The position numbers and the translations under genes were made by a program. A stretch of 64,000 nucleotides of DNA, taken from Candidatus Methylacidiphilales bacterium. GTDB taxonomy: Bacteria; Verrucomicrobiota; Verrucomicrobiia; Methylacidiphilales; CAZTYG01. This document shows, piece by piece, positions 2,383 to 58,816 of this stretch. Below the pieces are notes generated by a model that was given only the letters and a program-made list of their open reading frames with translations, did no database searches and had not been told where the DNA came from. The stretch is taken from the NCBI GenBank assembly GCA_033875315.1, contig JANRJG010000014.1:115166-179165 (forward strand), given 5' to 3'. Position 1 is the first letter of the stretch. Each line of letters starts with the position of its first letter.

Positions 2383-2454
2383 ACTAGAGCAATTCCGGAT
2401 TAGATAGGCACAATAGACTGTACAATCCCTGTCCGATGCCGTACCAAACTGGGG

Positions 2455-2835
2455 ATGAACCCATTGAGTGCAGATTTAAGGAAGCGGATCATTGCAGCGC
2501 GTAAAAAAGGCCACCGTATCGTCGATATCGTCGAGCACATGGAAGTCAGCCGTAGCAGTGTCGTGCGGTTGTGGAACCAATTCACCCAGCAGGGCCATTA
2601 TCAGCCCAAGCAGCAGGGCGGCTACCTGCGGTCCCGTCTGGAAGGGCATGACTCCAGTCTGCGCCAGTGGATTGCTCACCGGCCCGACCTGACTTTGGAA
2701 GAGATCAAGGAGCGCTGCCGCACCGAACTCGGGGTGGTGATCGGCAAAAGCGCCGTGGCCGATCGTCTGGTCAAGCTGGGACTGTCCTTTAAAAAAAACC
2801 CTGCGCGCTGCCGAGCAAGAGCGGCCCGACATTGA
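2455..2835 (+). CDS. IS630 transposase, N-terminal HTH part (orfA frame)
   Basis: MNPLSADLRKRIIAARKKGHRIVDIVEHMEVSRSSVVRLW is typical of the IS630 HTH. The frame leaves the conserved sequence at the A8 run 2791-2798. Confidence 0.85.
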   Translation: MNPLSADLRKRIIAARKKGHRIVDIVEHMEVSRSSVVRLWNQFTQQGHYQPKQQGGYLRSRLEGHDSSLRQWIAHRPDLTLEEIKERCRTELGVVIGKSAVADRLVKLGLSFKKNPARCRARAARH

Positions 2836-2887
2836 GCAGGCACGCCTTGCCTGGAAGCAAAAGCAAGCCCTGTGGGATCCCCGTCGG

Positions 2888-3397
2888 TTGGTCTTCATAG
2901 ACGAAACCGGTCTGAACACCAAGATGACGCGGCTTTATGGACGCTCCGCGGTCGGCGAACGTTGCAGGGACGCCGTGCCTCATGGTCACTGGCACAGTTC
3001 CACCTTCCTTGCGGCCTTGCGCCATGACGGGTTCACGGCCCCGCTGCTCATTGATGGGGCCTTGGATGGGGACATGTTCCGGGCCTATGTCGAACAAAGT
3101 CTGGCTGCCACATTGAGTCCGGGGGATATCGTCATCCTCGACAATCTCTCCAGTCACAAGGTCCATGGAGTGCGCCAAGCCATCGAAGCCCGTGGAGCCC
3201 ATCTGCTTTACCTTCCAGCCTACAGTCCCGATCTCAATCCCATTGAAATGGCCTTCTCCAAAATCAAAGCCTTCTTACGCCGGGCTTGTGCAAGAACCTA
3301 CGAAGAACTCATGCGGGCGGTCGCAGACTGCTTGTCACTGTTCACTCCACAAGAATGTATCAACTACTTCACTCATGCACATTATGTGTCTATATGA
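2888..3397 (+). CDS. IS630 transposase, DDE catalytic part (orfB frame, +1 relative to orfA)
   Basis: FIDETG, ILDNLSSHK and YSPDLNPIE form the DDE triad context. The frame is open back to the A8 run, reading KKTLRAAEQERPDIEQARLAWKQKQALWDPRRLVFIDETG from 2792. Confidence 0.85.
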   Translation: MVFIDETGLNTKMTRLYGRSAVGERCRDAVPHGHWHSSTFLAALRHDGFTAPLLIDGALDGDMFRAYVEQSLAATLSPGDIVILDNLSSHKVHGVRQAIEARGAHLLYLPAYSPDLNPIEMAFSKIKAFLRRACARTYEELMRAVADCLSLFTPQECINYFTHAHYVSI

Positions 3398-3459
3398 TCC
3401 GGAAATGCTCTAGGGTTGACCGATCGGTGAATGGAGTCTTTGCCAGCCAAAATCCGTAT

Positions 3460-3628
3460 AACTTCGCGAACTTAGCGTTCTTCGCGGTAAACAACTGCAT
3501 AGTTACGGCTCAGCAGGAGCTTTGCCCTCCCGTAAGGCACTTGGGTCCTGCCCAAAGGATTCGGGGACTAAAGATTCAACGCCCTCTACCTCTCTGTTCT
3601 CTGTTTCCTCTGTATCCTCTGTGGTGAA
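3460..3628 (-). repeat. composite repeat: two same-orientation 9-nt-period arms plus a GGAGCTTTGCCCTCCCG module
   Basis: Reverse complement of 3460-3508 is CCGTAACTATGCAGTTGTTTACC GCGAAGAAC GCTAAGTTC GCGAAGTT. Reverse complement of 3583-3628 is (GA)TTCACC ACAGAGGAT ACAGAGGAA ACAGAGAAC. Module CAGGAGCTTTGCCCTCCCG lies at 3514-3532. Confidence 0.6.
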
Positions 3629-3988
3629 TCATTCGGGCATGAGCGCCCGTTTCCACACCGCTTCCTCAAAACCGACCAAGCCGACCCCGGGTCCGATCGC
3701 GAAGGGCCGGCGGATGAGGTTGCCGTTGGCCGCCAGCAATGCCAATGCCTCCGCGGGTTTTATGCCGGGGAGCTGGTCCTTCAAGCCTAGGGCGCGGTAA
3801 TCCCGGCCCGAGGTGTTGAACAGTCGCCGGAGGTCCCCACCCTGGGCCGCGAGCACGGCCCGCAATTCTTTCTCACTTGGCGGGGTTTCGCGGATGGGGA
3901 TTTCCCGGAATTCCACCCCGCGGGCGCGGAGAAATTTCAGGGCCTTCCGGCAGGTGTCGCATTTGTCGTAAACGTAAACCTTCAGCAC
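3629..3988 (-). CDS. ArsC/Spx family protein (YffB-like glutaredoxin-fold reductase)
   Basis: LKVYVYDKCDTCRKALKFLRARGVEFREIPIRETPPSEKEL, and RRPF near the C-terminus. The track start at 4006 is TTG. GTG at 3986-3988 fits the family N-terminus better. Start uncertain. Confidence 0.7.
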   Translation of the reverse strand: MLKVYVYDKCDTCRKALKFLRARGVEFREIPIRETPPSEKELRAVLAAQGGDLRRLFNTSGRDYRALGLKDQLPGIKPAEALALLAANGNLIRRPFAIGPGVGLVGFEEAVWKRALMPE

Positions 3989-4767: not shown

Positions 4768-4920
4768 ACAGTGCAGATTGAGAAAAGTTAGTGGCAGCGG
4801 CCAAGACGCTTGGACGCCACCCTTTGTCAAGATCTCGGGCTGACCCCATGTGCATACCATGTGCGCCATATGCTACGCTTTGTTTCGCGCTTTGGCTCAA
4901 ACGGATAGTTCGCTTATGCC

Positions 4921-5766
4921 TTATGTTGGCAGAAACTGCTTCCACTGTTCTTTGACGTAATCAATGAATTCATCTACTCCTGGGGAATTGCAAACAGTAA
5001 CAAGCTCCATGCCAAGATTTGTTAAAATAACATGACCGATAGGCAGCTCATTATTTTCTTCGTTAGGCAATACAAGATTTAGTGGTTTTCCACAGTATGA
5101 TGCAGCAAACATTTTTGGTAGACCAGTTCTGTTAAAACCAGCAAGCCCCTGAAATTGCACTAATCCAATGCTGTCCAAATGAACAAGGGAATTAAAGTTG
5201 ATTCCCTTCTTGTTGTATATTTCTGCCATCGGATCGAAAATTAATGTTGTAAATGCCCCAACATTCCAACCAAAACTACAAAGATTCTGAAATAACTCAG
5301 CATCACGCTTGTCGAGGTCTCCTAGAAAATTTACTGTTCGTTTTGAAAAGGTTCCGGGAGAATTAGCTTCTCCGGCTAATACCTTTGCCCAGATCTGTTG
5401 CATTTCGTCATCCGAGACAATACGTGACTTATCAAAAAAGTTTGTCACCCAGTCATCCTCGATAAGACTTGGATCTGAATTTTCCTCAAGTTGAGGAAGT
5501 GCTTTTGCGGTTATGTTTTCCATGTTGTCTTGTCGTTGTGCTTCCTCCTCCACAAAGCGGCACATTGCTCGTCTGTGCAGATTAGTGACTTGAATCTCTG
5601 ACTGAGCCTTAATTAAATTAGCCTTTGCTTGGGCTTTAGCTACTCTCTCGATCTGCCAAGGCTCAAATAGACCTCCAACAGCCGAAGAGACTTTTTTGAT
5701 GAGGGTGTCCGCAGGCTTAGAAAGCTTGCCTAGATTTACGAGTGATATTGATTGATCGTCAGACAT
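4921..5766 (-). CDS. DUF2806-like protein (function unknown)
   Basis: ATG at 5764-5766 (the track start at 5793 is TTG). N-terminal coiled coil, then DDWVTNFFDKSRIVSDDEMQQIWAKVLAGEANSPGTFSKRT, which matches my memory of the DUF2806 signature. AT-rich codon usage, unlike the flanks. Confidence 0.6.
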   Translation of the reverse strand: MSDDQSISLVNLGKLSKPADTLIKKVSSAVGGLFEPWQIERVAKAQAKANLIKAQSEIQVTNLHRRAMCRFVEEEAQRQDNMENITAKALPQLEENSDPSLIEDDWVTNFFDKSRIVSDDEMQQIWAKVLAGEANSPGTFSKRTVNFLGDLDKRDAELFQNLCSFGWNVGAFTTLIFDPMAEIYNKKGINFNSLVHLDSIGLVQFQGLAGFNRTGLPKMFAASYCGKPLNLVLPNEENNELPIGHVILTNLGMELVTVCNSPGVDEFIDYVKEQWKQFLPT

Positions 5767-5975
5767 ATGTTTTTTGTTGAGCCTTGGGATCAACGTCTGA
5801 CATTTGACAGTGTCTTGCTACTATTTTTCAAATAGTGGCGTCCTCAAACACTACTCGCACTGGCCGGGCCGAAGTGCTGCTTAAGAGGTTCTGTCAATTG
5901 CGTCAATTGTCAGACGATGATCCCTGTCGCTTCAGTATTGCCTCGGTTGTTTTGATGTATTCCAAGTGTTCCGCG

Positions 5976-6431
5976 TTAGTCGCGCGACCTAGCGCGTTGG
6001 CTGGATGCGAAAGTCAACCACTCTATCTGTTTAGAAGAATCATAAATGAGTTTCATGTAGTAGCCTCTTACTTCGCCCACATGAGAGGCAATCTTACCTT
6101 GTAACGGAAAATTCAGGCTCTTTTTCTGTATATGGTATTCCTTCAGAATATCGTAGTTCAGGCTTGGATCAAAACAGATTTTAATTGTGGGGTTTGTGGA
6201 TATATATCGCAACTGAATTTGGGCTATCCCAATGGATACATGTCCTGCCATCTTCCTGTTAAACAATAACAGCCACTTACACCAAAGGTACTCAATCAAT
6301 CGAAACCAAGCAGGCCTGAAAAATGATTCAGTGATCAAAATTGCTATCAAATCAGGATCTGATCGGCCGCTCCGGAGAAGCCTTGCTATTCGAGGAGACC
6401 ATGAAGATAAGTGACCTTTGATGGTCGTCAC
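5976..6431 (-). CDS. hypothetical protein, weak SLT/lysozyme-like motifs
   Basis: GTG start at 6431, or TTG at 6350. LIAILITESFFRPAWFRLIE ... HVSIGIAQIQLRY resembles the E-S and G-x-x-Q motifs of lytic transglycosylases, but the spacing is atypical. AT-rich. Confidence 0.4.
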   Translation of the reverse strand: MTTIKGHLSSWSPRIARLLRSGRSDPDLIAILITESFFRPAWFRLIEYLWCKWLLLFNRKMAGHVSIGIAQIQLRYISTNPTIKICFDPSLNYDILKEYHIQKKSLNFPLQGKIASHVGEVRGYYMKLIYDSSKQIEWLTFASSQRARSRD

Positions 6432-6759
6432 GCAATTGTTGCCGAAGCTTTCTGTCGGTAATTAGCGATGTTGCAACACCCGCTACAAGCGCGACGATCA
6501 ATCCCAATACTATAATCTGTCCAAATAACAGTATGCGAATCTCTTTCCAGAGCCCTATCAGATCACCAGATTTAACATATGGACGCGCCCAATCGTAGCT
6601 GATCTCAAAAATTGTAATAAAACATCCAAAATAAACAAAATAAATAATTGTATATATAAGTATATTCTTTTTGGTGGCGACCGCATGTTCACCAAAGGTG
6701 ATTGCTGACTGCACCAAACCAATTAGTTTGTATGCTACGAAAAGTATAAAAAGGCCCAA
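6352..6759 (-). CDS. small multi-pass membrane protein (function unknown)
   Basis: Only a TTG start (6757-6759). About 3 hydrophobic helices (IYTIIYFVYFGCFITIF, ILLFGQIIVLGLIVALVAGV). AT-rich islet gene. Confidence 0.5.
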   Translation of the reverse strand: MGLFILFVAYKLIGLVQSAITFGEHAVATKKNILIYTIIYFVYFGCFITIFEISYDWARPYVKSGDLIGLWKEIRILLFGQIIVLGLIVALVAGVATSLITDRKLRQQLRDDHQRSLIFMVSSNSKASPERPIRS

Positions 6760-7097
6760 AAAGACGACACAGGCAGAAAAAAGCTTGATGCAAAACCTGC
6801 TATCGCTGGTGTAACAACTACAGATATAGTCATAGAAATAATTGAGTTCCGAACGATCTTTTTCTGTAATTCATCCAATTCTTTTTTTGATAAACTTGCT
6901 CCTTCCCCAAAAAACCAATCATCAGCCAGATATTTTGAGAGGTCTTTGTTTAGTTCCCTAAAGGGGAAAATTGAAAAATAGATTGGGACATAGAATAGTT
7001 TCTTAAAACGTCGGATGATTCCGGGCACCTCAATGAAAAGAAGGGCTACAATCACCGGGATAAGCTGAATCTCTAAATTCCAGAGGTTTTGAAACAT
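6735..7097 (-). CDS. small membrane protein (function unknown)
   Basis: MFQNLWNLEIQLIPVIVALLFIEVPG and a C-terminal helix TISVVVTPAIAGFASSFFLPV. First gene of the AT-rich cassette. Confidence 0.5.
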   Translation of the reverse strand: MFQNLWNLEIQLIPVIVALLFIEVPGIIRRFKKLFYVPIYFSIFPFRELNKDLSKYLADDWFFGEGASLSKKELDELQKKIVRNSIISMTISVVVTPAIAGFASSFFLPVSSFWAFLYFS

Positions 7098-7296
7098 ATA
7101 CTTGTTGGCTATGTGAATGATATGGCAGATAGGTAATGGTGTATTAAACGACGAGCTTACTTTTGCACGAAACCCAACCTGATCCGTTCCCAGAACCCTA
7201 GCTCAAGGCGTTAGTCTGTCGAGAGGGAATGGAGAGCGGGGCTTCGGCGGCCAATGGGGTCAAGGGGCCACAGAACGGCGGCAGGGGACTGTCCCG

Positions 7297-7618
7297 TGAC
7301 CGCGTCTTGCGGACGCGACCTCGCGGCAGCCCTACAGGTGATTCGTCTGGTCAGCTTAATTTGGTGTTATACCCAAACACGTTGAGTAGGCGGCGGGTTT
7401 TTCGGGAAGGCGAGGCTCCCGGGTCCACCCGTAGCGTCGTATGGCGGGACCGGGCCGTTCAGTGGTCTTTCTTCCGAAGGCGGCTCTGCAGGAGCTTCGC
7501 CCTCCCGCTGGGCGCACGATGGCCTGATGATTGTGGTTTTGTATCAATCCAAACCGAAAAACTTCGCGTCCTTCGCTTTCTTCACGCTCCTCGCGGTGAG
7601 CAACAGCCTACTTACGGC
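7297..7618 (-). repeat. repeat-dense non-coding tract: two arms plus an inverted pair of the GGAGCYTCGCCYTCCC module
   Basis: Reverse complement of 7557-7618 is CCGTAAGTAGGCTGTTGCTCACC GCGAGGAGC GTGAAGAAA GCGAAGGAC GCGAAGTTTTT. A degenerate arm lies at 7297-7350. GGGAAGGCGAGGCTCC (7404-7419) is complementary to GGAGCTTCGCCCTCCC (7491-7506). Confidence 0.6.
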
Positions 7619-7640
7619 CGCAGACTGGCTTCCGGAAGCC

Positions 7641-28549: not shown

Positions 28550-29522
28550 CCAAGGCCCCAAGAAAAAGAACCAACACATGAACCAAAAACAACTCAAACC
28601 CCACTTGGAAGAATGGTCACGGAAAGGCCTGATCCAACCCACCCAGGCCGAGGCCATCCTCGCCCTCTATCCTACCTCAGGAAGAAATTATTGGACGATC
28701 GCCTTTGCCGTCATCGGGACCTTTCTGATCCTGGGCGGCGTGATCCTGATCCTATCCAGCAACTGGGAAGACATTCCCGACACCGTGAAAATGGCCGGAC
28801 TGCTGGCCTTGCTGGCGGCCTCGTTGATCACCGGGGTGGAGGCCCAACGGCGCGGCATGAACCGGGCCTGGTGGGAATGCGGCTACCTCGGGGCGGCGGT
28901 TTTTCCTCTCCTCGGCCTGATGCTGGTCAGCCAGATTTTTCATGTGCAGGGGAAGGCCACCGGGTTGGTGTTGGTGTGGACACTGGCCACGCTCCCCTTG
29001 CCCTTGTTGACCCGCAGTGTCAGCACCTGGGTCGTACAGATCCTGGCCCTGATGTCCCTGCTCATCTGCGCCAAGGAAGACGGATACCTGGGCGCCCGCT
29101 ACGACTTCCATCAATGGTGCCAGGTGTGGATGGCTTTCGGGGGTCTTTTGGCCCTGCTTTCCCAGGCCTGGCATCGCGTCGGAGAAAAAATCCAGGCCGG
29201 CCTCGGAGAGTTCTGGGGACTCTTGATGGTTTTCATCGCCGCTTACGTCTGGGGCTTTGAGTTGAAACCTTGGTTCGGTTGGTGGACGTTGGTGTTCCTG
29301 GGGGCTCTCGGATTGATATACCGGGGCTACCTCCGGGCCAAGGCCCACCAAGTCAACATGGGCTTCGTCATGGTCGCCCTGGTCACGCTCTCGGTTTTCT
29401 TCCGCTTGGTCGGCACGATGTTCAACACCGGTCTGATCTTCATCGCTGGCGGCGGCATGATCATCCTCACGGTATGGGGCCTGAACCGGATCAGGAAACA
29501 AGTGCTGGGAGGAATCGGGTGA
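28527..29522 (+). CDS. DUF2157-like polytopic membrane protein
   Basis: LEEWSRKGLIQPTQAEAILALY followed by about 9 TM helices. Alternative ATG at 28578. Confidence 0.6.
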   Translation: MDPVKTNDQGPKKKNQHMNQKQLKPHLEEWSRKGLIQPTQAEAILALYPTSGRNYWTIAFAVIGTFLILGGVILILSSNWEDIPDTVKMAGLLALLAASLITGVEAQRRGMNRAWWECGYLGAAVFPLLGLMLVSQIFHVQGKATGLVLVWTLATLPLPLLTRSVSTWVVQILALMSLLICAKEDGYLGARYDFHQWCQVWMAFGGLLALLSQAWHRVGEKIQAGLGEFWGLLMVFIAAYVWGFELKPWFGWWTLVFLGALGLIYRGYLRAKAHQVNMGFVMVALVTLSVFFRLVGTMFNTGLIFIAGGGMIILTVWGLNRIRKQVLGGIG

Positions 29523-29551
29523 GTCTCCACGCAGACAAGGAAAGAAGAACC

Positions 29552-30022
29552 ATGAGAACAAGACTGTTGTATACGTTATTGGCCGTGCAGATGCTGGGAT
29601 TGGTGGCGCTCTATGCCTGGCATCAGGCGGGTTTGGGCTATCCCAGTGTCATGTTGAAGACCCTGCCGGTGGATCCCCGCGATCCGCTCCGTGGAGACTA
29701 CATCATTTTGAACTACGAGATCAGTCGGGTGCCGGAAGATTTCAACCACCAAGAACACGAAGGGCGCGAAGTCTTTGTGATACTCAAGGACGTAGGGGGA
29801 TTTGCGGCAGTCGAGCGGGTGCAGCTGTGGGACCCGGGTTATGGGGAACGTTTCATCAAGGGCCGGGTGAAAGGAACCCGGATCGAGTACGACCTGGAAA
29901 AATTCTTCGTCCCCGAAGGCAAGGGCAATCCGCCGTTGCCGATCACGGTGGAGGTGTCTTTGCGGGGCGACGGGCATGCGCAGATCAAGCGTCTCTTCTC
30001 CCAAGGAAAGCCGTGGCCGTAA
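29552..30022 (+). CDS. GDYXXLXY domain protein
   Basis: N-terminal TM, then PVDPRDPLRGDYIILNYEIS (the GDYxxLxY motif itself). Confidence 0.75.
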   Translation: MRTRLLYTLLAVQMLGLVALYAWHQAGLGYPSVMLKTLPVDPRDPLRGDYIILNYEISRVPEDFNHQEHEGREVFVILKDVGGFAAVERVQLWDPGYGERFIKGRVKGTRIEYDLEKFFVPEGKGNPPLPITVEVSLRGDGHAQIKRLFSQGKPWP

Positions 30023-30030
30023 AAGCAGCA

Positions 30031-30073
30031 GGGGAGTTTTTGAACAGAAGGCAACAAAGGTAACGGAGCAAGG
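30031..30073 (+). repeat. degenerate solitary arm of the 9-nt-period repeat family
   Basis: GGGGAGTTTTTGAAC AGAAGGCAAC AAAGGTAAC GGAGCAAGG, 9 nt after the GDYXXLXY gene stop. Confidence 0.4.
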
Positions 30074-31011: not shown

Positions 31012-31254
31012 ATGATGGCCCCAGTTTTACCGTCCTGTCGGATTCACGAGCACCTTGAAACCCGCGAAGTCGAGCGGATCAAGCGACTGCTCGGACGGAT
31101 CAGTTGGGGCTTGGGGAACCCCATCCAGGCCCGGGACATCGACGACGAAACCGTCCTGAGCCATTGCCCTTACATGAAGCCCAACGGGCCGTCGCAGTTG
31201 TGCACCCATGCCTGCCATCTGCACCATTTGGTTTTCGCCGAAAGCTGGCCGTAG
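31012..31254 (+). CDS. small Cys/His-rich hypothetical protein (80 aa)
   Basis: ATG ATG at 31012. Strong GC3 bias in this frame. The C-terminal half SHCPYMKPNGPSQLCTHACHLHH has 3 Cys and 5 His. No family recognised. Confidence 0.45.
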   Translation: MMAPVLPSCRIHEHLETREVERIKRLLGRISWGLGNPIQARDIDDETVLSHCPYMKPNGPSQLCTHACHLHHLVFAESWP

Positions 31255-31257
31255 CTG

Positions 31258-31456
31258 AAACGATGTAGTTGGTTGACCACAGAGGACACAGTGAACACAG
31301 AGGAAGAGAGAGGGTCGTGCGGCTATTCTTTTTGGTCACCATTCGGTGATGCTGAGTACAAAGGCAATGTAGTTGGAATCATTCGTAATCATTGTATTTC
31401 AAACGATTTAACTCTGTGATCTCTGTGTCCTCTGTGGTTAAACTGCATTTTTCCGG
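31258..31456. repeat. inverted pair of 9-nt-period repeat arms around a 97-nt unique core
   Basis: Left arm: ATGTAGTTGGTTGACC ACAGAGGAC ACAGTGAAC ACAGAGGAA. Reverse complement of the right arm: CCGGAAAAATGCAGTTTAACC ACAGAGGAC ACAGAGATC ACAGAGT. Confidence 0.7.
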
Positions 31457-31569
31457 CTTAGAGTCTTGGTGGTTAATCAGCTGTATCGTTGCGGCTGATG
31501 TCTATCCCCAGCATGGACGGGGAAAAGATTTCCGGAATAGAAAAGCCTGATCCGGCGTCTTATGAGGGT

Positions 31570-57782: not shown

Positions 57783-58523
57783 TCATTTCCGCAAACGTGC
57801 GGGATCCAGGGACTCATCCTCGCGCGTCGCGGCGTAAATCGGCCCGAACCAGGTGTCGACCAGGCAGAGTCCGAAGACGGCCGCGAACGGGATGGTGTAG
57901 AAAAACGCGGTGGTGATGCTGTTCAGGCCGGTCAGGAAAATGGAGGCTATGAGATAGGACTTCCAAGCTTTGCGGAACAGGCGGAAGTTTTCCCCGTAGT
58001 TCAGGGCGCAATCCAAAGGGGAGGCGCCGTCCAGCCAGCGGCAGCAACCGACGCCGCAGAATGGGATGACGAAGAGCATGGCCGGCGGGACAAAAAGCGA
58101 AAGCATCGAGACGGGCAGACCGAGAATGGAGATGAAAACCAGATGGCAAAGCGCTATCCAGATGCCCACTGGGAGGATGAGGGTGAAGACGGCAATGAGC
58201 AGTTTCACCGAACCTTCGTAGGCGAAGCGCCCGAGCACGGCGAAGGACCAATCCGGAAGTTGCGGGGCGGTGGCGAAGCGGGCCCGGCGCAAGACTTCAT
58301 AAGTGAACCCCAGTGGGAACCAGAAGCTGATGACGTTGAAGCCGAGCGCGGTGTAAAATATGGCCGGAACGTAAGGATTTTCCGTGCCGGAAAAGAAGGC
58401 GGGGGCGGTGGCCAGAAGGAACGGGTTGATGAGCAGGAATCCGCCCAGGAGAACTTTCCACACCGCGTTCCGGTCGCTCAAAATCTGGGCAAAGCCCCTG
58501 CGAATATCCTCAAATTGCACCAT
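57783..58523 (-). CDS. DUF4013-like membrane protein
   Basis: ATG at 58521-58523 (MVQFEDIRRGF ... NAVWKVLLGGFLLI). About 6 TM helices. Confidence 0.5.
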   Translation of the reverse strand: MVQFEDIRRGFAQILSDRNAVWKVLLGGFLLINPFLLATAPAFFSGTENPYVPAIFYTALGFNVISFWFPLGFTYEVLRRARFATAPQLPDWSFAVLGRFAYEGSVKLLIAVFTLILPVGIWIALCHLVFISILGLPVSMLSLFVPPAMLFVIPFCGVGCCRWLDGASPLDCALNYGENFRLFRKAWKSYLIASIFLTGLNSITTAFFYTIPFAAVFGLCLVDTWFGPIYAATREDESLDPARLRK

Positions 58524-58569
58524 AGGGATCCGGATTTTCCGAAGAAACGCCTCCGGGTCAAGGCTTAAG

Positions 58570-58743
58570 CCGGAAAAATGCAGTTGCACCACAGAGAGCA
58601 CAGAGGACACAGAGGAAGATAGAATTTAGGGGCTCTTTTTTATCGACGTTCGGCACATCCCTTTTCGCCCCCAATCCGTTTCACTTTTCCTCGGCGTCTC
58701 TGCGTCTCGGCGTCTCTGCGCGATATCAACTGCATGGTTCCGG
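58570..58743. repeat. inverted pair of repeat arms with conserved CCGGAAnnATGCAGTTG termini but different unit flavours
   Basis: Left arm: CCGGAAAAATGCAGTTGCACC ACAGAGAGC ACAGAGGAC ACAGAGGAA. Reverse complement of the right arm: CCGGAACCATGCAGTTGATATC GC GCAGAGAC GCCGAGAC GCAGAGAC GCCGAGG (8-nt period). 66-nt unique core. Confidence 0.7.
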
Positions 58744-58816
58744 ACAAGCTCAAAGCCTCCGGTTCGGTCGCCGGAATCACCCGCTCACCCACTCACCACA
58801 GCTGGCGGGGCAACGA

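Follow-up and report, generated by a model that had tools for sequence, protein, structure and literature searches.

The intergenic spacers of a 64,000-nucleotide stretch of contig JANRJG010000014.1 (the window), which carries ordinary chromosomal genes of a metagenome-assembled genome (MAG) of Verrucomicrobiota (Methylacidiphilales), contain short repeat arms which, to judge from sequence comparison, belong to a cross-phylum family of fixed architecture. Each arm appears to be composed of an outer head specific to the lineage, the junction TTWRCC, three units of 8-9 nt with the pattern RCNRAG(NN)C, and a purine-rich tail. We tentatively favour the view that these arms constitute a cross-phylum superfamily of extragenic repeats resembling repetitive extragenic palindromes (REPs) and REPINs, and that their paired form is a hairpin placed behind the stop codon; this explanation is held with some reserve. 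The family is absent from Rfam 15 and was not found in the searchable literature, and its conservation across phyla and phages is unusual. That the window holds a modular, structured family of intergenic repeats had been proposed in an initial annotation of this DNA, and such a family is indeed real.

The organization of the repeat can be followed on element A (31255-31460). Its left arm (31255-31314, + strand) begins with the outer head (TAG)CTGAAACG-ATGTAGTTG-GTTG-ACC, in which ATGTAGTTG occupies 31263-31271 and ACC 31276-31278, and continues with three 9-nt units of the ACAGAGNNC type, ACAGAGGAC (31279-31287), ACAGTGAAC (31288-31296) and ACAGAGGAA (31297-31305), and with the purine tail GAGAGAGGG. 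The stop codon TAG (31252-31254) of the gene upstream is itself part of the outer head, and homologues of this open reading frame (ORF) are present in relatives. The right arm (31412-31460, - strand) reads TAAGCCGGAAAA-ATGCAGTT-TAACC-ACAGAGGAC-ACAGAGATC-ACAGAG. Between the arms lies the core (31315-31411, + strand), in which both a separate TCACC-attc-GGTGA hairpin (31336-31349) and a third head, ATGTAGTTGG (31367-31376), were found where the initial annotation had placed them; this head is followed by the short repeat AATCATTCGT AATCATTGTA, that is, by two units of the AATCATTNG type. The two arms face each other, with 30 nt that are 90% complementary and 109 nt apart according to a repeat finder, and the whole region (31250-31470) folds into a single long hairpin of -87.7 kcal/mol (z = -6.5, 200 shuffles). 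The inverted pair of arms reported previously at 31258-31456 is thus borne out by the sequence, by its complementarity and by the fold. Element B (58550-58760) likewise forms a single long hairpin (z = -4.3 against shuffles), and in the folds of both elements the outermost pairs are made by ATGCAGTTG with CAACTGCAT and, beyond them, by CCGGAA with TTCCGG. The repeat finder also tied the arms of element A to 58566-58623 (49 nt, 88%; 36 nt, 86%), the 49-nt match being that of the right arm with 58566-58614 at 88% identity, and to 3599-3631 (33 nt, 82%).

Eight convincing arms were recognized in the window in addition to the third head in the core of element A, which is fewer than the nine or more arms counted at first. 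A single 9-mer is no more frequent than chance predicts (11 vs 10.7 matches), whereas the degenerate three-unit pattern RCNRAKNNC-RCNRAKNNC-RCNRAK occurred 4 times with 0.01 expected from 200 dinucleotide-preserving shuffles, and all four matches are preceded by CC. The similarity of the arms therefore withstands comparison with shuffled controls, although that of a lone 9-mer does not, and chance as an explanation of the window arms listed here is already refuted. The ATGYAGTTG motif of the outer heads was enriched as well (6 occurrences against 0.49 expected, a number reached in 0/100 shuffles). Tandem Repeats Finder (TRF) called period-9 arrays at 3599-3622, 7562-7595, 31274-31300, 31412-31436 and 58590-58616, and period-8 arrays at 58690-58720 and 58777-58797. 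All of the window elements (5/5) start behind a stop codon and in the sense orientation. The claim that nearly all of them abut stop codons applies to four of the five, whose first arms lie at 0-19 nt; the fifth, element B, begins only ~57-73 nt past the stop of the glutathione peroxidase gene (58817).

The repeat can no longer be regarded as a feature of one genome, since the ACC plus three-unit module recurs in many phyla and in phages. A collection of species-representative genomes (596 Gb) was searched for exact matches to CACAGAGNNCACAGAGNNCACAGAG, in which 21 bases are specified, so that less than one chance match is estimated in the entire collection. At least 120 loci were found, labelled as more than 10 phyla; among the matches listed, the labels were Planctomycetota, Verrucomicrobiota, Acidobacteriota, Chloroflexota, Bacteroidota, Cyanobacteriota, Gemmatimonadota, delta-, beta- and gammaproteobacteria, and others. 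The genome matches listed often consist of a + and a - match separated by 30-200 nt. The same search gave at least 120 loci in viral contigs of IMG/VR, some of which bear phage hallmark genes: a phage metallopeptidase, HNH and ParB_N on contig L144, and a major head protein gene adjoining the arm on L219. A BLAST search with a consensus arm revealed copies in cultured Bacteroides ovatus, B. finegoldii, Nostoc, Anabaena, Calothrix, Pseudoalteromonas and Gemmatirosa, two megaplasmids of the latter having 24 and 16 places with arms; none was found by BLAST in 5,426 complete Escherichia coli genomes. On a megaplasmid of Pseudoalteromonas shioyasakiensis (CP076682.1, 438960-439500; locus L326), composite units of ~240 nt, each comprising a heads-outward pair of arms with flanks, are arranged in tandem. 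The other strain aligned with that locus in 4 pieces only, covering 62% of the query, so that the strains probably differ in their repeat region. REPs and similar small repeats of intergenic DNA are usually taken to be lineage-specific; here, a non-coding module of ~35 nt is found with one and the same head, pattern of units and number of units in Verrucomicrobiota, Planctomycetota, Acidobacteriota, Chloroflexota, Bacteroidota, Cyanobacteriota, several proteobacterial classes and phages.

The anatomy of the arm was derived from 136 arms of the genome loci among the matches listed. The five bases preceding the first CACAGAG (positions -5 to -1) are T (.71), T (.65), A (.55), A/G (.97) and C (.89), which gives TTWRCC as the universal head; an A-rich stretch precedes these bases and a purine-rich tail follows the array. 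Positions RC.RAG..C of the unit are fixed across phyla, and the two spacer bases vary, being mostly GA, AA, AG or AT. Exactly three units are present in 126/136 arms. Among arrays in the same loci which had not been selected by the search pattern, those of two, three, four and five units numbered 79, 68, 0 and 1, and three therefore represents a ceiling and not the tail of a slippage distribution. The number of units is accordingly constrained to three, and not free. A second flavour, CGCAAAG, had three units in 43/47 cases in viral contigs, about half of them with heads of the TTNRCC type as judged by eye. Matches to CGCGAAG in viral contigs were mostly coding repeats, and the window remains the main source of that flavour. 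Across 460 kb of loci picked by protein homology only, few strict arrays of period 8 or 9 were present, and these were again of the arm type. Several unit flavours, and both the 8- and the 9-nt period, coexist within one genome and even within one element.

The ATGYAGTTG terminus, by which the family had been defined at first, is shared with a Methylacidiphilales relative; it is not enriched in heads from other taxa, and hence is a lineage-specific outer head. A G[T/C]AG tetranucleotide lies within ATG[T/C]AGTTG in 5/6 window heads and in relative L323, but it is paired inside the hairpin. In the heads of 151 arms of other taxa, GTAG shows neither a fixed position nor enrichment. When six single arms were folded as DNA, those with ACAGAG units gave -0.3 to -0.9 kcal/mol (z = +0.5 to +1.5), and the others had z = -0.3 to -1.0. 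An alternative head, AAGATT(G/T)TCTCT-CACAGAG..., was noticed in contigs L161, L148, L171, L190 and L224 of the viral collection (G+C ~0.5), on the first of which such arms occupy most intergenic gaps; the TCT-C head precedes CGCAAAG arrays too (L407, L416, L424).

We give scarcely any credence to the idea that the arms reflect chance, low complexity or tandem repeats of coding sequence. It could draw on the unremarkable frequency of the single 9-mer and on the matches that are indeed coding repeats, namely loci L033, L042 and L099 among the genomes and many GCGAAG matches in viral contigs. Nevertheless, the frequency of the three-unit pattern in the window, a head and tail anatomy conserved in 136 arms and the intergenic location all speak against it, and period-8 variants cannot be coding.

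An inverted partner within 300 nt was present on the tail side of 55% of genomic arms and on the head side of 5%, and only 12% of arms in viral contigs had a partner; ~88% of the latter are solo, compared with ~45% in genomes. The genes around paired copies are co-directional in 39 cases, convergent in 21 and divergent in 3, and the median distance to the neighbouring gene end amounts to 30-37 nt on the head side and at least 120 nt on the tail side, in line with the bias to gene 3' ends that had been expected. Arms thus mark gene 3' ends, and as they also yield spurious ORFs with tripeptide repeats, a model of the arm would improve the annotation of MAGs. In viral contigs, a TAA, TGA or TAG belonging to the head itself ends the upstream ORF in 14/33 cases, many of one lineage, and the next start codon often follows closely behind the arm tail. 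In phages most copies stand alone, in short gaps between genes, and the sense strand is favoured (28 vs 13); genomic solo arms between co-directional genes are sense in 6 cases and antisense in 14. Copies are also found inside operons, between pdhA, pdhB and pdhC, and between gmd and fcl in Bacteroides. Partner arms match each other beyond the fixed 7-mers, both in the head (z = 5.8) and in the tail (z = 3.8), and their spacer dinucleotides match weakly (z = 2.3), so that the stem consists of 7-bp blocks interrupted by frequent 2-nt mismatches. All-against-all BLASTP of ORFs located within 8 kb linked no protein family to the arms, the largest cluster covering 5/120 loci. In one phage lineage (L184, L195, L204, L223 and related contigs), the arm is followed by three to four 8-nt repeats of the CTTAAAAC type which reach the next start codon (10548-10590 on L204), and at other loci (AATCGCAA)n, (GGATTTTN)n or (ATCCAGYA)n arrays adjoin the arms; several kinds of short-period tandem modules seem to be combined in these spacers.

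Location behind genes and avoidance of divergent promoter regions would also be expected of a canonical intrinsic (Rho-independent) terminator with a repetitive stem, a function the initial annotation had allowed for. In addition, when read along the upstream gene, elements A and B end in CTGCATTTTT, and element B stops just ahead of a promoter-like TTGACC-16-GAAAAT sequence upstream of the next gene. We consider this reading very improbable, however. A run of at least six A or T within the 8 nt outside the head was seen in no more than 30% of paired arms, the stem has an A/T-rich and not a G+C-rich base (TTWRCC), and no terminator-like site was called at element A or B. Moreover, the copies inside the pdhABC and gmd-fcl operons have no T run, and solo arms cannot terminate transcription.

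The window and 18 loci gave no Rfam 15 match at the gathering score, two tRNAs aside, and in the E-value mode only generic miRNA-precursor hairpins far below threshold appeared. Full-text searches with the sequence returned primers only, and keyword searches gave no description of the arm, in keeping with the initial statement that no formal description was known. The closest described elements are REP, BIME and REPIN sequences, GTAG-tagged repetitive extragenic palindromes mobilised by RAYT tyrosine-HUH transposases (PMC3733652; PMC3116915), and it is on this account that we read the arms as a REP/REPIN-like repeat with three-unit arms. In a survey of tagged REPs, head-to-head dimers predominated, termini supplied stop codons, variants of the GYAG tag occurred, and abundant families were found in a verrucomicrobium (PMC3733652). 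Both kinds of element are short, extragenic, present in high copy number (8 arms in 64 kb of the window and the many places on the Gemmatirosa megaplasmids, in our case) and mostly arranged as head-to-head dimers, which form one long hairpin. They lie near or overlap stop codons, enter operons, form modular mosaics and can be represented by several families per genome; REPs have been reported in Verrucomicrobia, and the window heads contain G[T/C]AG. The REP monomer, on the other hand, is an imperfect palindrome of 20-40 nt, while the arm described here is a structure-free tract of three tandem units; since a single arm lacks the palindrome, it falls outside REPs as strictly defined. Furthermore, GYAG is not conserved outside this lineage, and the inner module is common to many phyla and phages, whereas REP families typically remain at the species or genus level. 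No Y1 HUH transposase (RAYT) was among the families listed for the window ORFs (25 of 59 families in one listing).

Other small repeats bear a more limited likeness. Miniature inverted-repeat transposable elements (MITEs), Correia/NEMIS, ERIC, RUP and BOX elements are small palindromic repeats, and they share with the arms terminal inverted repeats, a non-coding nature, a length of ~100-250 nt, an intergenic location and possible effects on transcripts. They differ in that our elements lack a shared core, a clear target-site duplication and a cognate insertion sequence (IS), and in that the inverted repeats here are made of 8-9-nt tandem units whose flavours differ between copies. Cyanobacterial short tandemly repeated repetitive (STRR) sequences reportedly consist of heptamers; they too are short tandem intergenic oligonucleotide repeats that co-occur with other short-period arrays. 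The period of the arms is 9 or 8 instead of 7, however, their units are capped at three instead of forming long arrays, and they have a defined head and tail, usually occur as inverted pairs and are spread far beyond cyanobacteria. The 'stoperators' of mycobacteriophage L5 are said to be single repressor sites of 13-14 bp, specific to one phage cluster. They resemble the phage arms as numerous asymmetric sites in short intergenic gaps, mostly in one orientation relative to transcription, but they are single sites, form no three-unit arrays and are not shared with unrelated hosts.

From the position and structure of the arms, their gain and turnover (see below) and the lack of a gene linked to them, we infer what they may do at the RNA level and how they may spread. 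Chromosomal arms are usually paired heads-outward, and the transcript or single-stranded DNA can then fold into an imperfect hairpin of 30-50 bp only a few nucleotides past the stop codon. Such a pair could serve as a post-stop-codon or intercistronic stem-loop, which would block 3' exonucleases and read-through and decouple neighbouring cistrons, as REPs do in enterobacteria. By analogy with REPs, a barrier at the 3' end or between cistrons, which protects the mRNA, damps read-through and separates the expression of cistrons, is the most likely function of the paired form. The arms might spread as non-autonomous DNA by means of a trans-acting activity or by recombination, may move horizontally, in part through phages, and their modules would be exchanged and homogenised quickly within a site. 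As they occur in the tractable Bacteroides, Nostoc/Anabaena and Pseudoalteromonas, these proposals are directly testable.

Several observations weigh against this REP-like interpretation. Solo arms, which are unable to form the hairpin, are common in genomes and prevail in viral contigs, and those in genomes have no sense bias between co-directional genes. The weak match of spacer dinucleotides between partners means that pairing is broken every 7 bp, and no compensatory changes pointing to a selected RNA structure were found in partner arms. Neither a convincing target-site duplication nor a mobilising enzyme was identified. Finally, a factor that recognizes the array would fit the strict limit of three units and the conserved RCNRAG pattern across phyla better than a generic hairpin does. 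Because such a hairpin leaves the three-unit cap, the conserved RC.RAG..C and the solo phage copies unexplained, a model in which the array is recognized as such stays alive.

In this alternative, which is possible although on the unlikely side, the three-unit array, for instance (CACAGAGGA)3, would be a recognition platform for a trans-acting factor, and the hairpin of paired arms would be secondary. The platform might be bound by three protomers or domains on a structure-free arm of single-stranded RNA or DNA, as by a small RRM-type protein or an HUH-type nuclease, or as a duplex by a repressor-like protein in the manner of 'stoperators'. It would account for the three and almost never four units, for RC.RAG..C being fixed across phyla while the spacer bases vary, for ACAGAG arms being less structured than their shuffles, and for the phage copies being mostly solo, in short gaps and in the sense orientation; the same spacer dinucleotides in 13/13 phage contigs passing the pattern search at one site are a weak hint in this direction. 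In vitro, the RbpB protein of B. thetaiotaomicron binds three repeats of a purine-rich 8-mer but does not bind a C/U-rich one (bioRxiv 10.1101/2021.04.27.441718), which is a mere lead. The coexistence of several flavours and both periods in one genome or element is nonetheless awkward for one sequence-specific binder, genomic solo arms lack a strand bias, no gene for a candidate protein is linked to the arms, and a scan for the RNP1 motif found no RRM gene in the window or the loci, a sample that is uninformative in this respect. We likewise put forward only as a tentative idea, rather unlikely at present, that TTWRCC together with three RCNRAG(NN)C units is a conserved cis-element for a widespread trans-acting factor, an RNA- or single-stranded DNA-binding protein or a nuclease/recombinase, common to bacteria of many phyla and their phages. 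If so, it would define a new class of regulatory or mobile signals behind stop codons that spans phyla, going beyond lineage-specific REPs, and a shared recognition mechanism would point to an undescribed, widespread layer of post-transcriptional control or DNA mobility.

Gain and turnover of the elements can be seen at several sites. In B. ovatus and B. finegoldii, a hairpin of ~75 nt, TTCACC-ACAGAGGAC-...-GGTGAA, lies between gmd and fcl, and its inner part is apparently inverted between the two species, as read from the unit order. The element is missing from Phocaeicola and Parabacteroides, where the two genes overlap, and from Prevotella, where 22 nt separate them; the hairpin was therefore gained at a formerly tight junction. 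The sole candidate for a target-site duplication, the 4-nt AATG at gmd-fcl, is too short to count, and none was seen at elements A and B. At the orthologous glutathione peroxidase (GSHPx) junction of a relative with 81% protein identity, the ATGCAGTTG...CTGCAT termini are kept and the inner modules differ: one side carries a GTAG-type hairpin, the opposite side 8-nt units of GCAGAGGC/GCGAAGAC. In a further relative, whose upstream gene is a different one, the spacer is only 88 nt long and no arm is evident in it on reading. In relative L241 (77% identical), the locus of element A is rearranged and the rhodanese gene is absent, so an empty-site comparison is uninformative there; a look-up for an exact protein match gave nothing. 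At one phage site, the 13/13 related contigs that pass the pattern search share two spacer dinucleotides, although their flanking coding sequence differs; since 21 fixed bases were imposed by the search, this constancy hints only weakly at constraint. Mosaic breakpoints occur on both sides of the element in related phage contigs.

Such behaviour raises the question of whether the arms are purely selfish or neutral non-autonomous DNA, similar to MITEs or REPINs, moved in trans by a transposase acting on their terminal inverted repeats, and tolerated only at gene-poor places behind stop codons, without any host function. Their multiple copies, terminal inverted repeats of at least 45 nt and lineage-specific outer heads, the gain at the gmd-fcl junction, the presence in phages and megaplasmids, and the G[T/C]AG in the window heads, as in RAYT-mobilised REPs, would all be consistent with this. 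We nevertheless regard it as doubtful. The copies have neither a common core nor a convincing target-site duplication, no transposase recurs nearby, and the sole IS of the window (IS630-like, 2384-3413) has unrelated inverted repeats. Conservation of the inner unit pattern and number across phyla is unexpected for lineage-specific transposon ends, and the apparently constant array at a fixed site of related phages weakly suggests constraint. A classical MITE, in particular, was rejected on the grounds that cores differ between copies, as had been pointed out initially, that no transposase within 8 kb recurs and that the repeats of the IS630-like element are different.

A number of other candidates were considered and rejected. 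A sigma-70 or ECF promoter is contradicted by a head that resembles a -35 box only at TT.AC, by the lack of a -10 element at the right distance and by the convergence of pairs. DnaA boxes (TTWTNCACA-like TTAACCACA) do not fit unit flavours without CACA, and a CsrA GGA sponge, Hfq ARN motifs or Shine-Dalgarno-like arrays are not compatible with GAGGA being present in only ~1/4 of units. A coding or read-through peptide is disfavoured by the period-8 variants, the variable dinucleotide and the inconsistent frame relative to the stop codon; the distance from stop to arm is divisible by 3 in 20/41 genome cases and equals 2 in 14/33 viral cases. As to the integron attC site, RYYYAAC/GTTRRRY is matched by TTTAAC...GTTAAA in roughly one half of the arms only, and an integrase and a cassette logic are both lacking.

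Of the further recurrences listed in the initial annotation, those of element B and four others were recovered. In element B, one arm (58566-58623, + strand) reads TAAGCCGGAAAA-ATGCAGTTG-CACC-ACAGAGAGC-ACAGAGGAC-ACAGAGGAA-GATAGA and adjoins the promoter of the - strand gene 57783-58523, whose product is 100% identical to a protein of 'Candidatus Methylacidiphilales bacterium', and the arm on the glutathione peroxidase side (58680-58743, - strand) reads CCGGAACC-ATGCAGTTG-ATATCGC, followed by the 8-nt units GCAGAGAC GCCGAGAC GCAGAGAC GCCGAGG. The period-8 array at 58777-58797 (GGTGAGTG GGTGAGCG GGTGATTCC on the - strand) is located between the glutathione peroxidase stop and this element. A solo arm at 3583-3628 (- strand), TTCACC-ACAGAGGAT-ACAGAGGAA-ACAGAGAAC-AGAGAGGTA, stands directly behind the stop codon TGA (3629-3631) of an ArsC-family gene, and a second arm in the same orientation, TGAGCCGTAACT-ATGCAGTTG-TTTACC-GCGAAGAAC-GCTAAGTTC-GCGAAGTTA, is found at 3459-3512 (- strand). 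The remaining solo arms are GCGGCCGTAAGT-AGGCTGTTG-CTCACC-GCGAGGAGC-GTGAAGAAA-GCGAAGGAC-GCGAAGTT (7560-7621, - strand), 19 nt past the stop (7641) of a gene for a cNMP-binding-domain protein, and TTTTTTAACC-GCCAGGAAC-GCGGAGGAC-GCGAAGGTG (1593-1629, + strand), 9 nt past the stop (1581-1583) of gene 282-1583. Two listed sites are poor members: 30031-30073 is only loosely periodic, and 7297-7350 carries a GTAG-type hairpin module (TGTAGGGC...) without a 9-mer array.

The latter site (- strand, CACC-TGTAGGGCTGCCGCGAGG...) is REP-like, and a GTAG-type module, TGTAGGGCGGC-ATGAGCC-GGCCGCCCTACA, was also noticed at 2763-2800 of relative L323. The module sits where the 9-mer array would be and follows a head of that kind; in this lineage, a classical GTAG REP and a tandem-unit arm therefore seem able to replace each other as modules.

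The IS630-family element at 2384-3413, which adjoins the arm at 3459-3512, has 29-nt terminal inverted repeats (2384-2412 and 3385-3413) that are 86% complementary and unrelated to the arms, so an origin of the arms from it was rejected. Its transposase is apparently split into an ORF without a Pfam match (2455-2835) and one with DDE_3 (2888-3397; PF13358, E = 3e-33). A 20-nt motif, GCAGGAGCTT(T/C)GCCCTCCCG, occurs downstream of two arms, at 3513-3532 and 7488-7507, outside both the arm and the IS. The region ~4800-7640 has a low G+C content (0.49-0.52 vs ~0.61 elsewhere), is bounded by arms and REP-like modules, and includes a DUF2806 gene (4921-5793, - strand) together with several ORFs for which Pfam gave no match; it may be a horizontally acquired island. 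An arm-like sequence, CC-ACCAAGAAC-ACGAAGGGC-GCGAAG, is present at 29746-29771 within the coding region of the GDYXXLXY gene (29270-30022), and could be due to chance, a coding repeat or an intragenic copy.

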